DNA of 40,000 nt from Clostridiales bacterium UBA1738 (GCA_002315735.1 DCIA01000004.1:44362-84361), one strand, 5' to 3'; positions 1 through 33,882 are shown, counted from the first letter of the stretch. Notes: generated from the letters alone by a model not told the origin. Numbers and translations are program-made.

Positions 1-1500
1 TGTTAGTGCGTATGGAAGTTGAGTCGAAACGTGATTGATATGGTTTGATTGTGCACCTGCTGATGACATAATAGTTGTATCAGAAATTGGTGAACAGTGG
101 TCACCACATACAGCACCTGCCATACAAGCAGAAATTGCAACGATTGTGATATCACCTTTGTCAAATCCGAATACAGCGATAACGATTGGAATTAAAATAC
201 CAAATGTTCCCCATGATGTACCTGTCGCAAAAGACATACCAACTGCAATTAAGAAGATTATAGCAGGAAGCAAGTTCATAAATGAATTTGCAGATGATGA
301 AACAACGCCATCAATGAATTCTTTAGCACCAAGGCTATCTGTCATTCCTTTTAAAGTCCAAGCACAGATAAGAATCATAATTGCAGGAACCATTGCCTTA
401 AAACCTTCCGGAATTGCTTCCATACAGTCCTTGAATGATAAAACTCTTCTTAACATAAAGAATGCAACTGTTAAAATTAATGTAATAAATGAACCAAATA
501 CCAACCCAACTGATGCATCTGAATTTGAGAATGCTTCAATGAAGTTGTGATATGCATCTTCACCGGCGGTAAAGAACCCACCTGAATAAATCATACCAAT
601 AACACAAGCGATGATAAGTACAATAACAGGTAATACAAGGTCAATAACTTTACCTTTTGCATTTGCATAAGTTTCCGAAACTGCATCTTTAAATTCTTCG
701 GCATGAGAAGTAAACAAATCACCATTTTTAGCATTTTCTTCATGCTTTTTCATAGGGCCGAAATCGAATTTCATAAGTGTGATTGTAACCATCATTACTA
801 TTGTCAAAAGTGCGTAGAAGTTATATGGAATTGCACTTAAAAATAGTTGGAAACCGTTCATTCCTGAGCCTTTTGCAAAACCACTTACAGCAGCTGCCCA
901 AGAAGAAATAGGAGCAATAATACAAACAGGAGCAGCAGTTGCATCGATTAGGTATGCAAGCTTTGCTCGTGATATATTTTGCTTATCTGTAACCGGTCTC
1001 ATAACCGAGCCAACTGTTAGACAGTTAAAATAGTCATCAATGAAGATAAGTACGCCAAGCGCAACTGTTGCAAGTTGTGCGCCGACTCTTGAATGAATCT
1101 TTTCTGATGCCCAACGTCCGAAAGCAGCACTTCCGCCGGCTTTATTCATCATAGCAACCATTGCACCAAGAACAACCAGGAATATCAATATTCCGACATT
1201 GTATGAGTCTGCAACGCTACCGATGAAGCCGTCTTGAAATACGTGCACAATTGTCATTTCAGGATTAAAGTTAGCATACAAAAGTCCGCCAACAACAATG
1301 CCTGCAAATAGTGATGAATATACCTCTTTTGTGATTAGAGCAAGTCCAATAGCTATAACTGATGGAAGCAAAGCCCACAAAGTGCCATTGAAATTACTAA
1401 CATACTCTTCGTCTCCTTCTGCAAATGCGCATACAGTCATTGCCAACATGAAAACAAAGGTAAGTACGGTCATGACCGTAATTTTTTTCTTTGAAAACAT
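1..1500 (-). CDS. NhaC-family Na+/H+ antiporter-like membrane transporter; the C-terminus runs off the window start. Candidate lysine-regulated transporter.
   Basis: Absent from the ORF track because it hits the window edge. The reverse strand reads ATG at 1498-1500, preceded by GGGGGA 7 nt upstream. It translates MFSKKKITVMTVLTFVFMLAMTVCAFAEGDEEYVSNFNGTLWALLPSVIAIGLALITKEVYSSLFAGI... and stays open and highly hydrophobic to position 1. The pattern is typical of NhaC-type antiporters. The + strand ORF 35..550 is its antisense shadow. Confidence 0.85.
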   Translation of the reverse strand, partial: MFSKKKITVMTVLTFVFMLAMTVCAFAEGDEEYVSNFNGTLWALLPSVIAIGLALITKEVYSSLFAGIVVGGLLYANFNPEMTIVHVFQDGFIGSVADSYNVGILIFLVVLGAMVAMMNKAGGSAAFGRWASEKIHSRVGAQLATVALGVLIFIDDYFNCLTVGSVMRPVTDKQNISRAKLAYLIDATAAPVCIIAPISSWAAAVSGFAKGSGMNGFQLFLSAIPYNFYALLTIVMMVTITLMKFDFGPMKKHEENAKNGDLFTSHAEEFKDAVSETYANAKGKVIDLVLPVIVLIIACVIGMIYSGGFFTAGEDAYHNFIEAFSNSDASVGLVFGSFITLILTVAFFMLRRVLSFKDCMEAIPEGFKAMVPAIMILICAWTLKGMTDSLGAKEFIDGVVSSSANSFMNLLPAIIFLIAVGMSFATGTSWGTFGILIPIVIAVFGFDKGDITIVAISACMAGAVCGDHCSPISDTTIMSSAGAQSNHINHVSTQLPYALT

Positions 1501-1520
1501 AACTATGTTCCCCCTTAAAT

Positions 1521-1552: not shown

Positions 1553-1574
1553 ACAAAAAAACTTTAAATAATTG

Positions 1575-1742
1575 TCATGATAGCGCTCCACGATTTCGTG
1601 ACAGTACGATATATGTTTTATATCGTCCCAGTAGTATGTTTTCGGCAAAAAACATACCCTTCGGCAATAATTCCTTTCACCGTTTTCGCATCGCCGTGCT
1701 ATAAAAAACGGATACTAATAATTACTGCACCTCTATACACAA
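1575..1742 (-). promoter_or_regulatory. Lysine riboswitch (L-box) aptamer
   Basis: The minus strand contains the conserved L-box blocks in the correct order: ATAGAGGTGCAGTA ... GAAAACGGTGAAAGG ... TTGCCGAAGGG ... CTGGGA ... CTGTCAC ... GTGGAGCGCTATC. A terminator and then the transporter start codon follow. Confidence 0.85.
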
Positions 1743-1747
1743 CTAGA

Positions 1748-11625: not shown

Positions 11626-11714
11626 GCCCAAGTGGCGGAATTGGCAGACGCCCAGGACTTAAAATCCTGTGGGAAGAGATTCCCGTGCCGGTTCGACCCC
11701 GGCCTTGGGCACCA
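11626..11714 (+). tRNA. tRNA-Leu (anticodon UAA), CCA encoded
   Basis: Manual cloverleaf. Acceptor GCCCAAG/CTTGGGC. Anticodon stem CAGGA/TCCTG with loop CTTAAAA. Long variable arm. T-arm GCCGG-TTCGACC-CCGGC. Discriminator A plus CCA. Confidence 0.9.
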
Positions 11715-17869: not shown

Positions 17870-18266
17870 TTACAACAAATCCTCTAAAGTCTTATTATCA
17901 AAAAACTGAACAATTAATTTGTGGAGTTCATCCCACATTTTTATAGTGTGGCAAATATTTTTTTTAGGACATTCATTTGTCGCTGTAGACAAACATGAAA
18001 CAGGCGCTAAATTTCCTTCTGTAAGTTTTAGTATATCTCCAATTATATAATCTTTTGGTTGTTTTGTTAAACGATATCCGCCACCATTTCCATGGACACC
18101 CTCAATCAAATTGTTTTTTTGTTAATACAGGCAAAATTCTTTCTAAATATTTAAGTGATATACCTTGTCTTTCGGCCACTTCCTTCATAGGGATATACTT
18201 TTCTTTTCCGTTTTGAGCTAAGTCAATCATGACTCTTATTGCATATCTGCCCCTTGTAGAAATCAT
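17870..18266 (-). pseudogene. Rrf2-family (IscR/CymR-like) transcriptional regulator, interrupted by a +1 frameshift in an A7 run
   Basis: N-terminal frame from ATG 18264-18266: MISTRGRYAIRVMIDLAQNGKEKYIPMKEVAERQGISLKYLERILPVLTKKQFD*. The C-terminal frame (track ORF 17870..18109) continues …IEGVHGNGGGYRLTK…C-x7-C-x5-C. Removing one A from the run at 18114-18120 gives …LTKNNLIEGVHG… in one frame. Confidence 0.85.
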
Positions 18267-18268
18267 AA

Positions 18269-19346
18269 TCATTCTCCTTCTATTATTGTTCCGCCGCCTA
18301 AGACTGTGTCATTATCATATAACACACAAGCCTGACCGGGCGTTATTGCCCTTTGCTTCTCTTCAAAAACGATGCGAATAGTTTTATCGTCTATTATATT
18401 CACGGTACAATTCTGTTCTTCTTGTCTATATCTAATTTTTGCTTTGCATCGAAATTCATTCTGTGGCACTTCACCGCTTACCCAATTAAAATCCGATACA
18501 ACTGCTTCATATGATAACAAATCACTTTTATCGCCTAAAACAACATTTCCGGAATCAGGACAAATTTTACAAACATAATATGGTTTATCCGATGATATTC
18601 CCAATCCTTTTCTTTGCCCGATTGTATAATTAATTATACCATTATTTTTTCCTATAATCAACCCATCCTTTGTTACGAAATTCCCCTTTATTAAATCTTT
18701 ATTTGTGTTTTTTTTAATCACGCTTGCATAATCACCATTTGGGGCAAAGCAAATATCCTGGCTGTCAGGCTTATTTGCATTTACAAAATCATTGTCATTT
18801 GCTATCTTCCTAACTTCACTTTTTTTCAAACAACCAAGCGGAAATTTCAAATGTGCAAGTTGCTCTTGGGTTAAAGAGTACAAAACATAACTTTGGTCTT
18901 TTGTACTGTCCACCGCTTTTTTTAAAACAAATTTTCCATTTTCAACTTCAATTCTCGCATAGTGGCCTGTTACAATATATTCACAGTCTAAAACCCTTGC
19001 TCTATCAAAAAGCTTATCAATTTTCATATACCGATTACAGTCAATACAAGGATTTGGTGTTATTCCCTTTTCATAACTCGCAACAATTTTTTTTAATTAT
19101 CTTTTCGTAAAAATCTTCTGTAAAATTAAATACATAATAATTCATTCCAAGATTAAAGGCAACACTTCTTGCGTCTTCAATATCTTCAAGCGAACAACAA
19201 GTATGTTCTTTTTTTATCCCTATATCTTCATTTTGAAATAGTTTCATAGTGCATCCGATACACTCATATCCACTATCAACCATTATTTTTGCAGCAATCG
19301 ACGAATCCACTCCACCACTCATGGCTATTAACGCTTTTTTATTCAT
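18269..19346 (-). pseudogene. mnmA: tRNA 2-thiouridine(34) synthase MnmA, interrupted by a +1 frameshift in an A8 run
   Basis: Track ORFs 19071..19346 (PP-loop AMSGGVDSS) and 18269..19027 (…VTGHYAR…) are the two halves. With one A fewer at 19087-19094 the reading frame gives …FYEKIIKKIVASYEKGITPNPCIDCNRYMKIDKLF…, restoring the conserved TPNPC..CN motif. Confidence 0.9.
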
Positions 19347-19391
19347 AGGAGTATCTCTTTTCTTAATTTATATGAAAAATATCACGTACAA

Positions 19392-19425
19392 ATATCCGAC
19401 ACTTATAATTTGTGATGTCGGATAT
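19392..19425 (-). terminator. Hairpin between cysK and mnmA (weak terminator or processing candidate)
   Basis: 10-bp stem ATATCCGACA / TGTCGGATAT with a 14-nt loop, starting 6 nt after the cysK stop. Only a poor U-tract follows. Confidence 0.4.
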
Positions 19426-19430
19426 CTTCT

Positions 19431-20363
19431 TTATTCTGTGAATAATGGTGTAGATAAATATCTATCACCGGTATCAGGAAGTAAAACCACAATCGTCTTA
19501 CCTTCGTTTTCAGGACGTTTTGCAAGTTCAATTGCCGCATAAGTTGCAGCACCTGATGAAATGCCAACCAAAACTCCTTCTTTTTTACCGATTAGTTTGC
19601 CTGTTGCGAATGCATCCTCATTTGAAACAGGGATTATTTCATCATATACCTTTGTATTTAACACATCAGGCACAAAGCCTGCACCTATTCCCTGTATTTT
19701 ATGAGTTCCTGCAACACCTGTTGAAAGAACTGCTGATGTTTCAGGCTCAACTGCAACAACTTTTACTCCATCTTTTTTTGACTTTAAGTATTCTCCGACA
19801 CCTGTTATTGTTCCGCCCGTTCCCACGCCTGCAACAAATATGTCTACATTTCCATCTGTGTCCTCAAAGATTTCAGGTCCTGTTGTTTCTCTGTGTGCTG
19901 TTGGGTTTGCCGGATTTACAAATTGACCCGGGATAAAACTATTTGGAATTTCCTTTGCAAGCTCCTCCGCTTTTGCAATAGCACCCTTCATTCCCTTTGT
20001 GCCTTCGGTCAATACTATTTCTGCACCGTAAGCTTTTATTAACTGTCTTCTCTCTACAGACATAGTTTCAGGCATAGTTAATATAATTTTATAACCTCTT
20101 GCCGTTGCAACGGATGCAAGTCCTATTCCAGTGTTACCGCTTGTTGGTTCTATAATTACCGAATCAGGAGTTAACTTGCCTGATTTTTCTGCATCATCAA
20201 TCATTGCTTTTGCAATTCTGTCTTTAACTGAACCTGCCGGGTTAAAATATTCAAGCTTTGCAAGTATTTTTGCTTTTAATCCTAATTCCTTTTCTATATT
20301 TGTTAGCTCCAAAAGAGGAGTTTTTCCTATAATTTGAACTGCTGATTTATATATTTTTGACAC
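19431..20363 (-). CDS. cysK: Cysteine synthase A (O-acetylserine sulfhydrylase)
   Basis: PLP-lysine motif [11 protein letters not shown] and [10 protein letters not shown]. 310 aa. GTG start. Confidence 0.93.
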
Positions 20364-20457
20364 AATATTATATTCCTTTCATTTTACAGTATATTGTTTA
20401 GTTAAATCCAATAAAACACAACATCGAAAAATCACTAATTCATTCATATAATCTACC

Positions 20458-20801
20458 TCACTTTATAGCATTAAAGCCTTCTTCTAAGTCGGCAATAATA
20501 TCATCTATATGTTCTGTTCCGATTGAAAGTCTTACTGTTGTGGGTGTAATTCCCGATGACGGCAATTCTTCCTCACTCAATTGACTATGTGTTGTAGATG
20601 CCGGATGTATAACCAACGATTTAACATCTGCAACATTTGCAAGAAGTGAAAAAAGTTTTAAGCTTTCTGTAAACTTCTTTGCATCTTCCGATGTACCGTT
20701 AATTTCAAAGGTAAAGATTGAAGCAGCACCGTTTTTAAAATACTTATCATGCATCCGAATCTATAATTATTTCTCACTAATAAGTTAATTGACTTTTGCA
20801 T
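20458..20801 (-). pseudogene. O-acetylhomoserine/O-acetylserine sulfhydrylase (MetY-type) remnant; most of the gene is missing
   Basis: Track ORF 20458..20754 matches only the C-terminal end of Cys/Met-metabolism PLP enzymes (…LANVADVKSLVIHPASTTHSQL…RLSIGTEHIDDIIADLE…). A promoter, an RBS and ATG 20799-20801 give MQKSINLLVRNNYRFG…, which is N-terminus-like, in another frame. The two parts are joined at about 20746-20757. Confidence 0.8.
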
Positions 20802-20837
20802 AGTATTTTCTCCTACCTACTTATTTGGTATGTTGTT

Positions 20838-20866
20838 ATTATATCACAACTTACCTACCTTGTTAA
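20838..20866 (-). promoter_or_regulatory. Sigma-A type promoter upstream of the metY remnant
   Basis: Minus strand TTAACA, 17-nt spacer, TATAAT with an upstream TGTGA. Flanked by TACCTA/TAGGTA repeats. Confidence 0.5.
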
Positions 20867-20961
20867 TAGGTAAAAAGAAATTTATCCAACTTTTAACTTT
20901 TATTTTTATCCATAATGAAACATGGCCACTACCCTATATGAAATTAAAACTATATTAAAGA

Positions 20962-20997
20962 TAAAAAATTTGCATTTAAATAATTAAAATGCAAATT
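20962..20997 (-). terminator. Rho-independent terminator after dapL
   Basis: 11-bp stem AATTTGCATTT / AAATGCAAATT, followed on the minus strand by TTTTTTAT. Confidence 0.7.
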
Positions 20998-21011
20998 ATC
21001 TACATAATTTT

Positions 21012-22199
21012 CTATTTTAGCAACAAACTTTTCAATAGTATTGCCGCTTTTTTTGTATCCTCTAAATCGCCAAATGTCGAAAACCTAAAATAACCTTCTC
21101 CGCATTTACCAAATCCTTCCCCGGGTGTTCCCACAACCTGTATTTCGTTTAATAAATAGTCGAAGAATTCCCAACTTGTCATATTGTTTGGACACTTAAC
21201 CCAAATATACGGAGCATTCTTACCACCGCAATACCAAATTCCAAGTTCATCAAATGTCTTCATTAGAGCTTTTGCATTTTCTTTATAGACTGCAATGTTT
21301 TGATGTATTTCCTTTTGACCTTCTTTAGTAAAAACAGCTTTTGCACCTTCTTGAATAATATAAGACACACCGTTTGTCTTTGTTGTTCGATTTCTAACCC
21401 ACATAGTGTTAAAAGACATACCATCTCTTTCTAAATCCTTCGGAATTACTGTATAACCAAGCCTTGTTCCTGTAAAGCCCGCAGTTTTAGAAAGGGAACA
21501 AATTTCGATTGCACAAGTTTTTGCACCTTCGATTTCAAATATGCTATGTGGTAAATTTTCACCTTCAATAAAAGCTTCATAAGCCGCATCAAACAAGATG
21601 ACAGCTCCGTTTCCATTTGCAAAGTCTACCCATTTTTTTAGGAGTTCCTTTGTAAAAACCGCTCCCGTAGGATTATTGGGAGAGCAAATATAGATAATAT
21701 CTGCATTACAATCATTATTTGGTGTTGGCAAAAATCCATTATCCTTTCCTGAATCTAAATGTATTATCTTTCTGCCTGCCATAATGTTAGCATCAACATA
21801 CGCCGGATATACCGGTTCTATAACTAAAGCTTTACTTGATTTATCAAACAAATCTAAAATATCGCCAAGTTCATCACTTGCGCCACTCGATACGAACACT
21901 TCTTCAACATCAAGTGAAATTCCATTCTTTTTATAATACTCTGCTATCAAACTGCGAAGTTCTGCATCGCCACATTCAGGCATATATCCATGAAATGTTT
22001 CTTTATTTCCTTGGTTTTCTACTGCTTTATGAAGTGCATCAATAACAGATTTACACAAAGGAAGAGAAACATCACCAATCCCCATTTTATATAGATGTTT
22101 GTCGGGATTTTTTTCCTGATATGCTTTAACTTTTTGTGCGATGTTGTAAAAAAGATATGAATCTTTAAGATTGTTATAATTTTTATTTGGAACTATCAT
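21012..22199 (-). CDS. dapL: LL-diaminopimelate aminotransferase
   Basis: 395-aa class I aminotransferase. N-terminal …LKDSYLFYNIAQKVKAY…KMGIGDVSLPL and the PLP-lysine region CSLSKTAGFTGTRLGY fit DapL. Its start overlaps the dapF stop (ATGA). Confidence 0.85.
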   Translation of the reverse strand: MIVPNKNYNNLKDSYLFYNIAQKVKAYQEKNPDKHLYKMGIGDVSLPLCKSVIDALHKAVENQGNKETFHGYMPECGDAELRSLIAEYYKKNGISLDVEEVFVSSGASDELGDILDLFDKSSKALVIEPVYPAYVDANIMAGRKIIHLDSGKDNGFLPTPNNDCNADIIYICSPNNPTGAVFTKELLKKWVDFANGNGAVILFDAAYEAFIEGENLPHSIFEIEGAKTCAIEICSLSKTAGFTGTRLGYTVIPKDLERDGMSFNTMWVRNRTTKTNGVSYIIQEGAKAVFTKEGQKEIHQNIAVYKENAKALMKTFDELGIWYCGGKNAPYIWVKCPNNMTSWEFFDYLLNEIQVVGTPGEGFGKCGEGYFRFSTFGDLEDTKKAAILLKSLLLK

Positions 22200-22714
22200 T
22201 TTACCTCTCCTTCATAAACCGTTTCACATGGACCTGTCATATTAATTTCATTGTTTTTATTAATTTTAATTTTTAATATTCCACCGTCTAATATTACTGA
22301 AATTTCTTCATCATACTTACAATATCCGTTTTTGATTGACGCAAGAGTCGATGCACATGCTCCTGTTCCGCAAGCCATAGTAATTCCACTCCCTCTTTCC
22401 CACACTCGCATACGAATTGTTTTTTCATCTATAACTTCGACAAATTCAACATTAACTCCGTCTTTAAAATATGAATTCTTTTCAATGCATGGACCAAGTG
22501 TATCTATCGGTGCATTATCAATATTTTCAACAAATGTAACTGCATGTGGATTACCAACAGAAACAGGAGTAAATTGTGTATTTTTAAGTGTAATTTTATC
22601 TTCTGCAATTCCTTTTCCCATATCAACAGACACTTCTTTGACTTTGCCACTTCTAATATATAGCTTCAATTTTTTAATTCCGGATAATGTTTCAATTTCA
22701 AGTGTTGTTTTATC
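22196..22714 (-). pseudogene. dapF: Diaminopimelate epimerase, 3' fragment only (N-terminal roughly one third missing)
   Basis: …VSVGNPHAVTFVENI… and the second catalytic Cys region WERGSGITMACGTGACAS are present. The first-domain motifs (N-terminal GNDF, first catalytic Cys) are absent. DapF-like sequence begins abruptly at about 22714, joined to pyrG sequence. Confidence 0.85.
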
Positions 22715-23355
22715 TGCATACCAAGGCAAATCCCAAAATAGGGCACATGATTTTCTCTTGCATACTTTGCAGACAAAATCATTCCTTCAACTCCCCTGTC
22801 GCCAAATCCTCCCGGAACGATAATACCATCCACTCTTGAAAGCACTTCTTCATAAGTATCATCTGTCAATTCTTCAGAATTAATCCATGATATTGCCACA
22901 TCGGTATTAAAGCAATATCCTGCATGTCGAAGTGCTTCGGCAACAGATAAATACGCGTCATGTAGTTCAACATACTTTCCGACAAGTCCGATTTTTACAG
23001 TCTTATTTCTCGTATGAATTCTATCTACAAGCTTGGTCCATTCTGTCAAGTCAGGCATTGGTGCATTTACGCCAAGCTCTCTTAACACTATTGATGAGAA
23101 GTTTGACTTCTCAAGCATAAGGGGGGCTTCGTAAAGATTCGGAAGTGTTATATTTTCGATTACGCAATCATTTTTTACATTACAAAACATAGAAATCTTT
23201 TTAAATATCGAATCCTCAAGCGGTTCGTCACATCGAAGAACAATGATATTTGGGTTAATACCCATCCCCTGAAGTTCTTTTACCGAGTGCTGAGTTGGTT
23301 TTGACTTGTGCTCGTCACTTCCTCTTAAAAAAGGAACTAAGGTTACATGAATATC
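22714..23355 (-). pseudogene. pyrG: CTP synthase, internal fragment only (both ends missing)
   Basis: Reads …DIHVTLVPFLRGSDEHKSKPTQHSVKELQGMGINPNIIVLRCDEPL… through to …VPYFGICLGMQ. It then switches out of frame into dapF sequence. No N-terminal synthetase P-loop region and no distal GATase region occur anywhere nearby. Confidence 0.88.
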
Positions 23356-23831
23356 ATTTCTTTTAATTCATAAATATTGATATTCTTATCTGCACTTACA
23401 TATATTTCGTTTTGGGTTTGCTTCGGAATTTTGGGCAGTAAATCGCATTTATTATAAGCTACAATATACGGAATATTTTTGTTTTCAAATTCTTTTGTTA
23501 AATTCTTATCCGTTTCATTCAATCCTTTTTGGGCATCGACAACCAAAATTGCAATATCTGTTTCGGAAAGAATATCCATTGCTCGTTTTACACGCATTTT
23601 TCCGAGTGTTCCTTCATCATCAATCCCCGGTGTGTCAATTATTACAACAGCTCCGATAGGCAAAATTTCCATTGCTTTTTTGACCGGGTCTGTTGTAGTT
23701 CCCAAAATGTTTGAAACTAATGATAGATTTTGACCTGTAACAGCATTTACAAGGGAGGATTTACCGACATTTCTAAGTCCGAAAAAGCTTATGTGTTTTC
23801 TTTCTCCCGAAGGAGTATCATTTAAACTCAT
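23343..23831 (-). pseudogene. hydF: [FeFe]-hydrogenase maturation GTPase HydF, G-domain only (dimerisation and Fe-S domains missing)
   Basis: MSLNDTPSGERKHISFFGLRNVGKSSLVNAVTGQ…TTTDPV…IDTPGIDD…YNKCDL. The ORF stops 2 codons after the join to pyrG sequence at about 23350-23357. Good RBS (GGGGAGGA). Confidence 0.8.
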
Positions 23832-23848
23832 AATAGTATTCCTCCCCT

Positions 23849-23960
23849 TTAAAATCTGAAATCTCGTCTGTTTGAATTTCTTATATCGTTAACATTATTT
23901 TTTGCTATTTCTTTAACCTTTTCATTTGGTATTTTTTCAATCTCGGTTGCAATCATTTTG
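23849..23960 (-). pseudogene. hydG: Probable HydG C-terminal remnant (about 36 codons)
   Basis: A frame distinct from hydE reads KMIATEIEKIPNEKVKEIAKNNVNDIRNSNRRDFRF*. It ends 17 nt before the hydF start, as in a native hydG-hydF junction. The C-terminal …RD..F resembles HydG ends as I recall them. Weak evidence. Confidence 0.5.
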
Positions 23961-24272
23961 TACAAATGTGCGAAAGCCAATCTCATATCCATTTTTGCAA
24001 CATTCTAAAATTTGTGATTTACTTAAAATATATCTTGAACAATTACTGTTAGATTTTCTGATTCCGCAATACAAGCAATCATTTTTACAAGCATTGCTAA
24101 CCTCAATCAAGCCACGAATGAAAACTTGGTTTCCGTAGTATTGTTTTCTTAATTTATCAGCTATCATAACAGCTTCTTTCTCAAACAAACACCTGTTTGA
24201 AATCAAAAACTCGTATTCTTCTAATGATAAGCTATGCTCACTTACTAATTTTTCTAAAACATTATTCATCAA
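23937..24272 (-). pseudogene. hydE: [FeFe]-hydrogenase maturase HydE (radical SAM), 5' fragment only
   Basis: N-terminal about 105 residues, including the radical-SAM CKNDCLYCG motif and …GYEIGFRTFV. Homology then stops at about 23960 and the frame terminates (…QNDCNRD*). Confidence 0.85.
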
Positions 24273-24519
24273 ATATCACGCTCGAAAATGCAGTTTTGAC
24301 ACTAATACCATTAATGTTGCCTATTTTACCTGCTAATGCTGAAATAATATCCTGAGGAGCATCTAACGCGATAGAAATAACATTTATTTTCCTTTTTTTG
24401 TAAGGAATTCCCATTCTGCCGATGATATACTCACCATAAGCATGTAGGCATTCATTTAGTTTACCTACCGATTCTTCATTTTCAACTATTATAGCCATAA
24501 CGGCCACCTTGCTTTGCAT
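24262..24519 (-). CDS. TM1266-family ACT-like protein (putative iron-only hydrogenase system regulator)
   Basis: Start at MQSKVAVMAIIVENEE (AAAGGAGG upstream). …ISALAGKIGNINGISVKTA… resembles the TM1266 family usually found next to hydE/G/F. Confidence 0.75.
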   Translation of the reverse strand: MQSKVAVMAIIVENEESVGKLNECLHAYGEYIIGRMGIPYKKRKINVISIALDAPQDIISALAGKIGNINGISVKTAFSSVIFDE

Positions 24520-24548
24520 AGCAAAACCTCCTTTTAAATTAATTTTAC

Positions 24549-24583
24549 CAAACAAAAAAGTTGTACCACAAAAAGGGTACAAC
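24549..24583 (-). terminator. Rho-independent terminator inside the 5' leader of the TM1266-like/hyd operon (attenuator candidate)
   Basis: Minus strand GTTGTACC-CTTTTTGT-GGTACAAC followed by TTTTTTGTTTGG. It lies about 30 nt upstream of the start codon and downstream of a good promoter. Confidence 0.7.
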
Positions 24584-24651
24584 TCACCATTCACAGATAT
24601 AATTGTCTCCCTTTCACTCAGAAATACTTCTTTATGTTAGGTAACACCGGT

Positions 24652-24680
24652 ATTATATCATAACTAATCATATTTTACAA
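24652..24680 (-). promoter_or_regulatory. Sigma-A type promoter of the hyd leader
   Basis: Minus strand TTGTAA (24675-24680), 17-nt spacer, TATAAT (24652-24657) preceded by TGA (extended -10 like). Confidence 0.55.
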
Positions 24681-25045: not shown

Positions 25046-25120
25046 TGGCACCCCCGACCGGAGTCGAACCGATGACTAACCCTTAGGAGGGGTTTGTTAT
25101 ATCCACTTAACTACGAGGGC
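25046..25120 (-). tRNA. tRNA-Arg (anticodon CCU), CCA encoded
   Basis: Manual cloverleaf. Acceptor GCCCTCG/CGGGGGT (G1-U72 and U5-G68 wobbles). D-arm GTTA-AGTGGATA-TAAC. Anticodon arm AACCC-CTCCTAA-GGGTT. T-arm ATCGG-TTCGACT-CCGGT. Then G-CCA. Confidence 0.85.
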
Positions 25121-32826: not shown

Positions 32827-33882
32827 GTGGCAAAGCAGCATTACTTACGAAACTATCTTAGTGAACTTCCTGATTTTGTGTTTAGTTACATAGAGGAATA
32901 CTACACAGGCGAAAGTATAAACACACAGCTTGGGTATAGTATTGATATTAAAATTTTTTTAAACTATTTAAGGTCGTATAAATATCCTAACATAAAATCA
33001 AACGAAGATTTCACATTAGAGCACATTGAAAAAGTTACTCCAAGCGATTTAATCAGATTTAAAGCCTATCTAAGAGAGTATGAAACAGAATATCTATCCC
33101 CTGCCGGAAGAAAAATAAAAAGAATTTGTAAGAATTCGCCTTATGGCATTAACAGAAAGTTATCAGCCGTTCGTGGTATGTTTATCTATCTATATAAAAC
33201 GGAGCAATTATCACAAAATATCACCGACAAAGTTGATTTTGCAAAAATACATCAAAAAATTAAAAAGCCACTTACCAGTCAAGAATCAATAAAATTAATT
33301 GATGTTATTTATAATGGCGAAAAATATTTTGAAGGCAGAACTCTTACCGAATACAAAAATAAAAAAGAACGGGATATTGCAATTTTTACAACATATTTAG
33401 GAACAGGAATTCGTGTAAGCGAGCTTGTGAATTTGCAGATACAAGACATTGATTTTGACACACAATCATTTATCGTCACAAGAAAAGGCGGCGACCAACA
33501 AGAAATTTTTATGCCTGTTCAGGTTAGCAATGCGATATACTCTTATCTTCACAAAGATGAAGATAATGTTCGTGATAAAGGTCCACTTTTTTTAGGTCGT
33601 GGTGGAAAACCTTTAACTACGGCATCGGTTGAAAAAACATTAAAAAACTACTGCTACGCTGTTGACATCACACACCCTGACAAAACAAGACCTCACGCAT
33701 TAAGACGAACCTTTGCTTGTAGATTATTAGAAGATGGCATTGACATTAAAATGGTTGCAGAACTTATGGGGCATAAAAATATTGAAGTTACACACCGATA
33801 TTATGCTCAATATTCATCGCAAAAGCGTCGTGAAGTTATGCAGAATCTTGATGTTTTAAAACTTCCCGAAGAGGATTTATAA
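32827..33882 (+). CDS. Tyrosine-type site-specific recombinase (XerC/XerD/phage-integrase family)
   Basis: GTG start with AGAGGTGA upstream. Catalytic region …GIRVSEL… (Arg), …HALRRTFA… (H-x-x-R), …LMGHKNIEVTHRYY (His, Tyr). Confidence 0.85.
   Translation: MAKQHYLRNYLSELPDFVFSYIEEYYTGESINTQLGYSIDIKIFLNYLRSYKYPNIKSNEDFTLEHIEKVTPSDLIRFKAYLREYETEYLSPAGRKIKRICKNSPYGINRKLSAVRGMFIYLYKTEQLSQNITDKVDFAKIHQKIKKPLTSQESIKLIDVIYNGEKYFEGRTLTEYKNKKERDIAIFTTYLGTGIRVSELVNLQIQDIDFDTQSFIVTRKGGDQQEIFMPVQVSNAIYSYLHKDEDNVRDKGPLFLGRGGKPLTTASVEKTLKNYCYAVDITHPDKTRPHALRRTFACRLLEDGIDIKMVAELMGHKNIEVTHRYYAQYSSQKRREVMQNLDVLKLPEEDL

Follow-up and report, generated by a model that had tools for sequence, protein, structure and literature searches.

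A dense cluster of apparently recent gene-inactivating lesions in an uncultured gut Clostridia member

Within a 40,000-nucleotide stretch of Clostridiales bacterium UBA1738 (GCA_002315735.1 DCIA01000004.1:44362-84361), hereafter the window, a minus-strand block of ~6.4 kb carries four deletions and two single-base frameshifts that disable eight genes: hydE, hydG and hydF of the [FeFe]-hydrogenase maturation system, pyrG, dapF, metY, mnmA, and a gene for an Rrf2-family regulator. These lesions are very probably real features of one strain's DNA, and at the scale that can be resolved they look recent. The explanation that best accommodates the whole—recent collinear deletions and slips, acquired in a burst and tolerated in the gut—is one to which we give an even chance. 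An initial annotation of the window had offered two alternatives, real local decay or serial deletion and a locally mis-assembled or collapsed region, and it is the first of these that the evidence favors.

Six lesions in one block

The lesions were located by an open reading frame (ORF) map, by coverage of NCBIfam profiles and by tblastn with full-length homologues from related loci, and the amounts of missing DNA were estimated from homologue coordinates. The same methods reproduced, to within a few bases, the coordinates of the six lesions described in the initial annotation, and agree with it that cysK and dapL inside the block are intact, with full-length profile coverage. From its hyd end onward the block reads as follows (aa, amino acids).

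24262..24519, minus strand: TM1266-family hydrogenase-system regulator gene, intact, 85 aa (112.5 bits, profile 1-75/76)
23961..24269, minus strand: hydE 5' fragment, aa 1-104/106 of ~345, CxxxCxxC kept (NCBIfam, tblastn)
23852..23962, minus strand: hydG 3' tail, aa 446-482/482, out of frame with hydE (tblastn)
23352..23831, minus strand: hydF 5' fragment (GTPase domain), aa 1-160 of ~400 (NCBIfam, tblastn)
22711..23352, minus strand: pyrG middle fragment, aa 173-386 of ~530 (NCBIfam, tblastn)
22199..22720, minus strand: dapF 3' fragment, aa 85-258/258 (NCBIfam, tblastn)
21012..22199, minus strand: dapL (LL-diaminopimelate aminotransferase), intact, 395 aa (479.9 bits, cut-off 364.7)
20838..20866, minus strand: promoter-like site before the metY remnant (TTAACA-17-TATAAT with TG; promoter scan)
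20458..20801, minus strand: metY remnant, ~16 codons of the N terminus and the last ~98 codons, in different frames (ORF map, NCBIfam)
19431..20363, minus strand: cysK, intact, 310 aa (452.5 bits, profile 3-298/298)
18269..19346, minus strand: mnmA, +1 insertion in the A8 run 19087-19094 (one-A removal test)
17870..18272, minus strand: Rrf2-family regulator gene, +1 insertion in the A7 run 18114-18120 (one-A removal test)

Four junctions, collinear and all within 3.2 kb, account for the truncated genes, and tblastn bears out the pairs of gene segments that had been proposed for the first three. At J1 (23961/23962) the 5' part of hydE meets a 47-aa ORF that matches the final 37 residues of HydG, with ~2.1 kb missing. 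At J2 the GTPase domain of hydF gives way to the middle of pyrG, such that hydF aa 160 ends and pyrG aa 173 begins at the same base, 23352, for a loss of at least 1.24 kb. J3 joins the middle of pyrG to the 3' part of dapF in a 10-nt overlap (22711-22720, TATGCAGATA), with ~0.74 kb missing. J4, the join of the metY 5' end to its 3' end, rests on profile coverage and comparison with relatives; it lies in 20748-20757, between '..NYRF' and 'HDKYF' (relatives read 'QYKFETLQ', in locus L169, and 'LYDKYF'), and has cost ~0.97 kb. All four joins are out of frame, and the DNA lost over them comes to ~5 kb or more. What remains is recognizable with NCBIfam E-values of 1e-13 to 1e-87 across all eight fragments, but only in part: HydE covers profile positions 2-102/340, HydF 2-164/392, PyrG 201-385/534, DapF 91-268/270 and MetY 326-417/418. 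Measured by the presence of three full-length maturases, the TM1266-hydE-hydG-hydF operon fails in the window, where TM1266 alone is intact, while relatives carry it complete.

The junctions themselves are clean. J1-J3 abut or overlap by 1-10 nt and are free of filler, and at J4 ~7 nt can be assigned to neither side. The overlap of the parental alignments, a homologue-based figure, is 2 nt at J1, 1 nt at J2 and 10 nt at J3. At J3, TATGCAGATA is readable in both frames (pyrG G-M-Q-I, dapF Y-A-D-K), and the sole dapF residue that deviates from relatives there is a Thr to Ala change, just as pyrG-derived bases would encode; the junction thus fits a deletion at imperfect microhomology. A search of the block for remnants of insertion sequences (IS) or other mobile elements, or for a motif common to the junctions, found none; neither were duplicated or inverted segments found between junctions. 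A viral or transduced origin was also considered, and the 41-mer across J2 is not in IMG/VR.

One candidate junction motif was tried and rejected. A 16-nt direct repeat, identical at 15/16 positions, links 23949-23964 (GCAATCATTTTGTACA, at the hydE-hydG junction) with 23164-23179 (GCAATCATTTTTTACA, in the pyrG fragment). Among ~20 such pairs it stands at chance level, and each copy encodes conserved residues of its own family, so the repeat is probably a coincidence.

The metY gene is also broken in other gut Clostridia. In L169 (1248-2534) an in-frame TGA replaces a codon that specifies Leu in homologues, and frameshifts occur in L170/L171 (1038-2320) and in L172/L173 (3007-4300), each lineage being represented in two different samples. 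The gene order in L170 is Rrf2-metY-cysK.

The remaining two lesions are pure +1 insertions in homopolymer runs, as had been claimed, since removal of one A restores a full-length protein in each case. The Rrf2 gene, split as found into profile positions 2-52 and 54-131 of 132, becomes an ORF of 133 aa that covers 2-131/132 at 127.5 bits (cut-off 73.3); mnmA, split into positions 2-79 and 100-345 of 345, becomes one of 358 aa that covers 2-345/345 at 425.5 bits (cut-off 284). Considered as possible slippage sites, the two runs measure A7 and A8.

Could the short ORFs instead be natural, functional short forms or recoded genes, with stand-alone domains in place of full-length proteins and programmed frameshifts in mnmA and rrf2? 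We reject this reading as extremely improbable. It is true that A runs can support transcriptional slippage and that ORFs of 98-99 aa for the MetY C terminus turn up repeatedly in the database, but the recurring MetY ORFs prove to be pieces of broken full-length metY genes, and A7 and A8 are shorter than the runs known for efficient slippage. Each fragment is partial for its family profile and out of frame with its neighbor. The 90% clusters of the fragments have only the fragments themselves as members, whereas homologues are full length in more than 100 related loci. The suggestion that the fragments match naturally short family members consequently fails.

The concentration of damage stands out against its surroundings. 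By simulation, the chance that six uniformly placed lesions all land in 5,844 bp is P = 3.6e-4 for 40 kb and P = 3.5e-5 for 60 kb. Of 57 homopolymer runs of at least seven bases in the window, 12 lie inside the block, both frameshifts among them. In keeping with the earlier statement that no comparable lesion was seen elsewhere in the window, ~24 other window genes span their NCBIfam profiles end to end, and gene sizes and domain content are normal in the next 10 kb to either side. In all, the genes in ~54 kb around the block are intact, including the biosynthetic genes dxs, ispE, folC, coaD and rpiB. An ORF-poor stretch at 1-1572 was considered as a further lesion and rejected: it holds an intact NhaC-type transporter gene that leaves the window at its start.

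Agreement among assemblies

By exact protein match, the home of the window is the 101-kb contig 3300001598|EMG_10000159 of the Joint Genome Institute (JGI). The sample behind it is a fecal metagenome from one six-year-old zoo Asian elephant, sequenced on Illumina HiSeq (2x100) and assembled with Velvet (PMC4160196). Genes of the window include sigF-spoIIAB-spoIIAA, valS, dxs, recG, tsaBE, dnaB and ftsH, its GC content is 33%, and the top matches of its proteins are metagenome-assembled genomes of gut and rumen Clostridia. Together, these properties indicate that the host is an uncultured spore-forming member of the Clostridia and that the window belongs to the core chromosome.

Abrupt joins of non-adjacent gene segments are what one would expect of chimeric metagenome contigs, and an artefact of assembly or consensus—chimeric joins, a collapse, or the choice of a minor deletion variant while the true genes are intact—must be considered for a sample of such complexity, all the more as a strain without pyrG and mnmA is suspect on biological grounds and one animal, or one DNA, may be the source of all the assemblies. 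The joins here differ from those of chimeras in being collinear, confined to one locus, reproduced across assemblers and runs, and much shorter in overlap than the k-mer. A 21-kb stretch with all six lesions is 100% identical between the Velvet contig and an 87.8-kb Logan contig of run SRR5323934. A 4.2-kb Logan contig of SRR1221442 has all four junctions in identical form, with the homopolymers outside its span, and a fourth contig, from NCBI (177 kb), encodes the same fragment proteins. Three assemblies from two de Bruijn assemblers and at least two runs are thus 100% identical through the junctions. In a de Bruijn graph a join requires common k-mers, and these joins share at most 10 nt, far under k = 31; reads that span the junctions must therefore exist. 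As for the homopolymer lesions, Illumina consensus is seldom wrong at A7 or A8 and the 45 runs of at least seven bases outside the block show no frameshift in the genes checked. An artefact accordingly appears improbable, and the mis-assembled or collapsed region of the earlier account is unlikely given that the junctions are identical in Velvet and Logan assemblies of Illumina 2x100 data.

Nor has an intact allele been assembled anywhere. Among 5.8 billion public proteins we found no intact allele or near relative (next-best HydF 71%, MetY 88%), and scans for an intact sister allele returned a best value of 80% in GTDB with dapL and, among the matches listed, of 69% in metagenomes with hydF. 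The long contigs pass the junctions without the breaks expected from a co-existing intact allele. A recent duplicated intact copy is unlikely, because branches or identical repeats would break k = 31 contigs at the junctions.

This last point also bears on whether the block is a redundant, decaying second copy, neutral because functional hydEFG, pyrG, dapF, metY, mnmA and rrf2 reside elsewhere. Such redundancy would explain the joint loss of so many functions, and it is compatible with the intactness of dapL and cysK, which could be chance (rough P ~0.1). We nevertheless regard it as very unlikely. Duplication in the recent past would have broken the contigs, and after an older one signs of ageing would be expected, of which none is seen. 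Moreover, pyrG-dapF-dapL and metY-cysK are normal chromosomal arrangements in relatives, and the genes around the block are core genes (valS, recG, tsaBE, dnaB, ftsH), with signs of mobile elements not found.

Age, ancestral order and origin

The fragments show little sign of time spent without function. Their ~1,280 pseudogene codons contain zero internal stops and zero extra frameshifts. The catalytic motifs are kept: CxxxCxxC in HydE; GKS, DTPG and NKxD in HydF; GICLGMQ in PyrG; ACGTGA in DapF; SGGVDSS in MnmA; and the cysteines of Rrf2. At columns conserved to at least 95% among 20-80 homologues, deviations number 7/235 in the fragments versus 3/178 in intact dapL and TM1266, all of them conservative. 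Because stops and extra frameshifts are lacking, motifs are kept and conserved columns have held as in intact genes, the lesions look recent, at ~2% or less neutral divergence by a rough estimate.

Comparison with relatives, which the initial annotation had proposed as a check, yields intact gene orders for the separate parts of the block. The order TM1266-hydE-hydG-hydF with small spacers recurs in more than 30 related metagenome loci; pyrG directly adjoins dapF-dapL in L035, L040, L039 and L050 and lies a few kb upstream in many other loci; and metY is adjacent to cysK in L169 and L170. Full-length hydE-hydG-hydF, pyrG-dapF-dapL and metY-cysK are therefore all to be found in related loci, and for this reason we take every fragment to be what is left of an ordinary, complete gene at its usual position, and the scars to be simple collinear deletions. 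In a distant relative, L148 (10001-12070), a dapF homologue of 42% identity directly follows hydF, so that the hyd-dapF neighborhood is not unique to the window.

How might so many lesions have come together? We propose an ancestral order of TM1266-hydE-hydG-hydF, then, perhaps after other genes, pyrG-dapF-dapL, then metY-cysK, which would have been struck by four collinear, out-of-frame deletions of ~2.1, at least 1.24, ~0.74 and ~0.97 kb. Illegitimate recombination, with microhomology of none to about ten bases, would have produced the deletions, a mode suggested by overlaps of 1-2 nt at J1 and J2, the lack of IS remnants and the lack of a motif common to the junctions. Two +1 slips in A runs would have broken mnmA and the Rrf2 gene. 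All of this damage may have accrued within a short time, in one error-prone replication or repair episode or in a few closely linked events, the episode consisting of forward template switches with low-fidelity synthesis nearby. The damaged strain could have persisted in a nutrient-rich gut that supplies cytidine, lysine or diaminopimelate (DAP), and methionine, and in which hydrogenase maturation is dispensable. Spatial clustering, lack of ageing and collinearity lead us to favor a burst over slow serial decay, if only tentatively and at somewhat short of an even chance. In its strictest form, the proposal makes the six lesions the footprint of one accident: a fork or broken end would have jumped forward four times, copying ~0.6, ~0.6 and ~2 kb between jumps, with the slips left by low-fidelity synthesis; dapL would have been placed under the hyd promoter and its leader RNA, and the survivor would have spread in its host. 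We consider this strict form unlikely, if still worth stating.

Slow serial decay is in our view rather unlikely, though far from remote. By this account six independent and successive events would have accumulated in a population confined to its host, through relaxed selection or through drift, with clustering explained by the freedom that each dead gene grants its neighbors, from hydE and hydG to hydF, to the pyrG remnant and on to dapF. Bacterial genomes are biased towards deletion, and the chain of joins (hydE-hydG, hydF-pyrG, pyrG-dapF) would make the later deletions partly cost-free. The loose bound on age leaves time for such a sequence, and metY, independently broken in the related gut Clostridia described above (L169, L170/L171, L172/L173), appears often to be dispensable. 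Serial decay has more difficulty with six functionally unrelated targets in 5.8 kb beside ~54 kb of untouched neighbors, and with ~1,280 dead codons at 33% GC that have gathered neither stops nor extra frameshifts and hold their conserved columns like intact genes.

Several points weigh against a recent burst of collinear deletions in a single strain. The bound on age, ~2% or less neutral divergence, is loose. Adjacency of hydF and pyrG was found in 0 of ~160 related loci (L148 has hydF next to dapF), and as the two are never neighbors there, J2 may represent a much larger deletion or a rearrangement, with a loss above the minimum. Templated insertions and duplications, usual in template-switch events, are not seen, and a +1 slip in a run of A is nothing unusual as a mutation. 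Both pyrG and mnmA are normally important, and barring other copies it is surprising that a population should thrive without them. The initial annotation spoke of lost pyrG and dapF 'copies', a word that presupposes second ones. The data come from a single haplotype in a single animal; 100% identity suggests that the runs share that animal or even the same DNA, in which case it is assembly, and not biology, that has been replicated.

Pseudogenes and deletion scars are familiar from host-restricted bacteria, for instance Mycobacterium leprae, the 'black holes' of Shigella and insect endosymbionts. As in the window, gene families there are disabled by homopolymer frameshifts and by internal or multi-gene deletions, and biosynthesis that a host can supply is lost. 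There, however, decay affects the whole genome, or it is due to IS elements or to selection at a specific locus, whereas the window has ~54 kb of intact surroundings, no IS remnants and unaged fragments. Work by Tamas and colleagues from 2008 reportedly found that poly(A)-tract frameshifts in endosymbionts are partly rescued by transcriptional slippage. The resemblance lies in +1 changes in the A runs of otherwise well-conserved genes; the difference is that efficient rescue is said to occur at tracts of 9-10 or more, and the window has A7 and A8.

For the deletions, the closest mechanistic template is the model of microhomology-mediated break-induced replication (MMBIR), or fork stalling and template switching (FoSTeS), developed for human copy-number variants and laboratory amplification in E. 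coli (Hastings et al. 2009, PMC2621351). Shared with that model are collinear breakpoints clustered in cis and junctions with apparently little or no homology, and the low-fidelity synthesis that it expects could explain the two homopolymer slips. Its typical duplications, inversions and templated insertions, by contrast, are not seen in the window, where a single-event origin is only proposed.

Judged by gene content, the strain is predicted to have lost [FeFe]-hydrogenase maturation (HydE/G/F), de novo synthesis of cytidine triphosphate (CTP) by CTP synthase, conversion of LL-DAP to meso-DAP (DapF) and direct sulfhydrylation to homocysteine (MetY). The formation of s2U34 in tRNA (MnmA) and the Rrf2 regulator would be lost or nearly so, unless rare slippage at A7 or A8 restores some product. 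Real lesions would mean that an abundant anaerobe of the gut manages with neither CTP synthase nor DAP epimerase, and also lacks direct sulfhydrylation and the maturation of hydrogenase, which would speak to cross-feeding in the hindgut. If the lesions arose together, the block offers a rare natural record of multi-breakpoint mutation in a bacterium, a kind of event for which most known cases come from human genomes and from E. coli in the laboratory, and were a single accident to prove true it would be a bacterial counterpart of chromoanasynthesis. In either case, the block is a well-documented example for telling true clusters of pseudogenes from errors of metagenome assembly.

The hyd leader RNA and neighboring features

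Upstream of TM1266, the block is headed by three features that survive the damage.

24652..24680, minus strand: sigma-70-like promoter of the hyd maturation operon (TTGTAA-17-TATAAT with TG; consensus match only)
24603..24646, minus strand: conserved structured RNA motif, hyd leader, intact (37.5 bits with model R1)
24558..24585, minus strand: terminator-like hairpin and T run (attenuator) between the leader motif and TM1266 (equivalent hairpins in relatives)

The leader motif, of ~45 nt, has the form CCUGA-CAU-AA-(hairpin)-GA-GUG-AA-AGG, with three stacked helices and two 2x2 purine loops between them. Its conservation ahead of TM1266 extends to many relatives, where a terminator follows it. 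In a seed of 11 sequences, 81% of cells are paired, versus 30-46% with the partners slid; compensatory changes occur in 7/11 motif pairs, and the three helices are supported by covariation. A covariance model returned 38 matches in 0.98 Mb of hydF loci and one weak match in 1.2 Mb of control loci. The spacer between hydE and hydG holds a second copy, whose 3' GAAAGG is the ribosome-binding site of hydG; in the leader copy, on our reading, the 5' arm of the terminator further downstream is complementary to this same GAAAGG. Copies in individual relatives lie at the following positions.

L084: 7088-7133, 8493-8534
L089: 7088-7132
L136: 7016-7069, 8482-8526
L117: 7082-7123, 8485-8526
L139: 4260-4301

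No Rfam family matched the leader motif at E <=1, and an Rfam scan of 17.5-25.5 kb, in which SAM and T-box elements were sought for metY, cysK and hyd, likewise returned nothing at E <=1. The motif has the appearance of a hitherto unreported cis-acting regulator of operons for hydrogenase maturation, a candidate riboswitch or protein-binding regulator. The window retains the copy in the leader and has lost the spacer copy through the J1 deletion.

The leader also alters how dapL may be expressed. The initial annotation had noticed no strong terminator hairpin between the hyd promoter and dapL; a terminator-like hairpin does lie in the leader, at 24585-24558, and is conserved in relatives within an attenuator-like element. 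Its suggestion that dapL is now the distal gene of a scarred hyd operon is possible in part, in that no terminator-like site was found between the attenuator and dapL, but transcripts would reach the gene only past the leader attenuator. Since the deletions removed whatever was upstream of pyrG, dapL may now depend on the regulated hyd promoter, as part of a putative transcription unit headed by that promoter and the attenuator. On the other side of dapL, an AT-rich near-perfect palindrome (20962-21002, TAAAAAATTTGCATTTAAAT / ATTAAAATGCAAATTATCTA) lies downstream of its stop codon and upstream of the promoter-like site of metY, and could be a weak terminator or an operator.

At the start of the window, a lysine riboswitch (1573-1743, minus strand, 104.9 bits) lies upstream of the NhaC/Na+-H+ antiporter-family gene (1-1520, minus strand), which runs off the window start and encodes an intact protein of 545 aa in the full contig. 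Placed behind such a riboswitch, this transporter is likely a lysine importer, which would be of relevance to a strain without dapF. Two tRNA genes were found, at 25049-25120 (minus strand) and 11626-11711 (plus strand). The first has rpiB on one side and the hyd promoter on the other, and a strong terminator-like hairpin (24999-24970) follows directly downstream of it. A gene for an XerS/XerC-like tyrosine recombinase of 351 aa (32827-33882, plus strand) is the lone plus-strand gene among minus-strand core genes.

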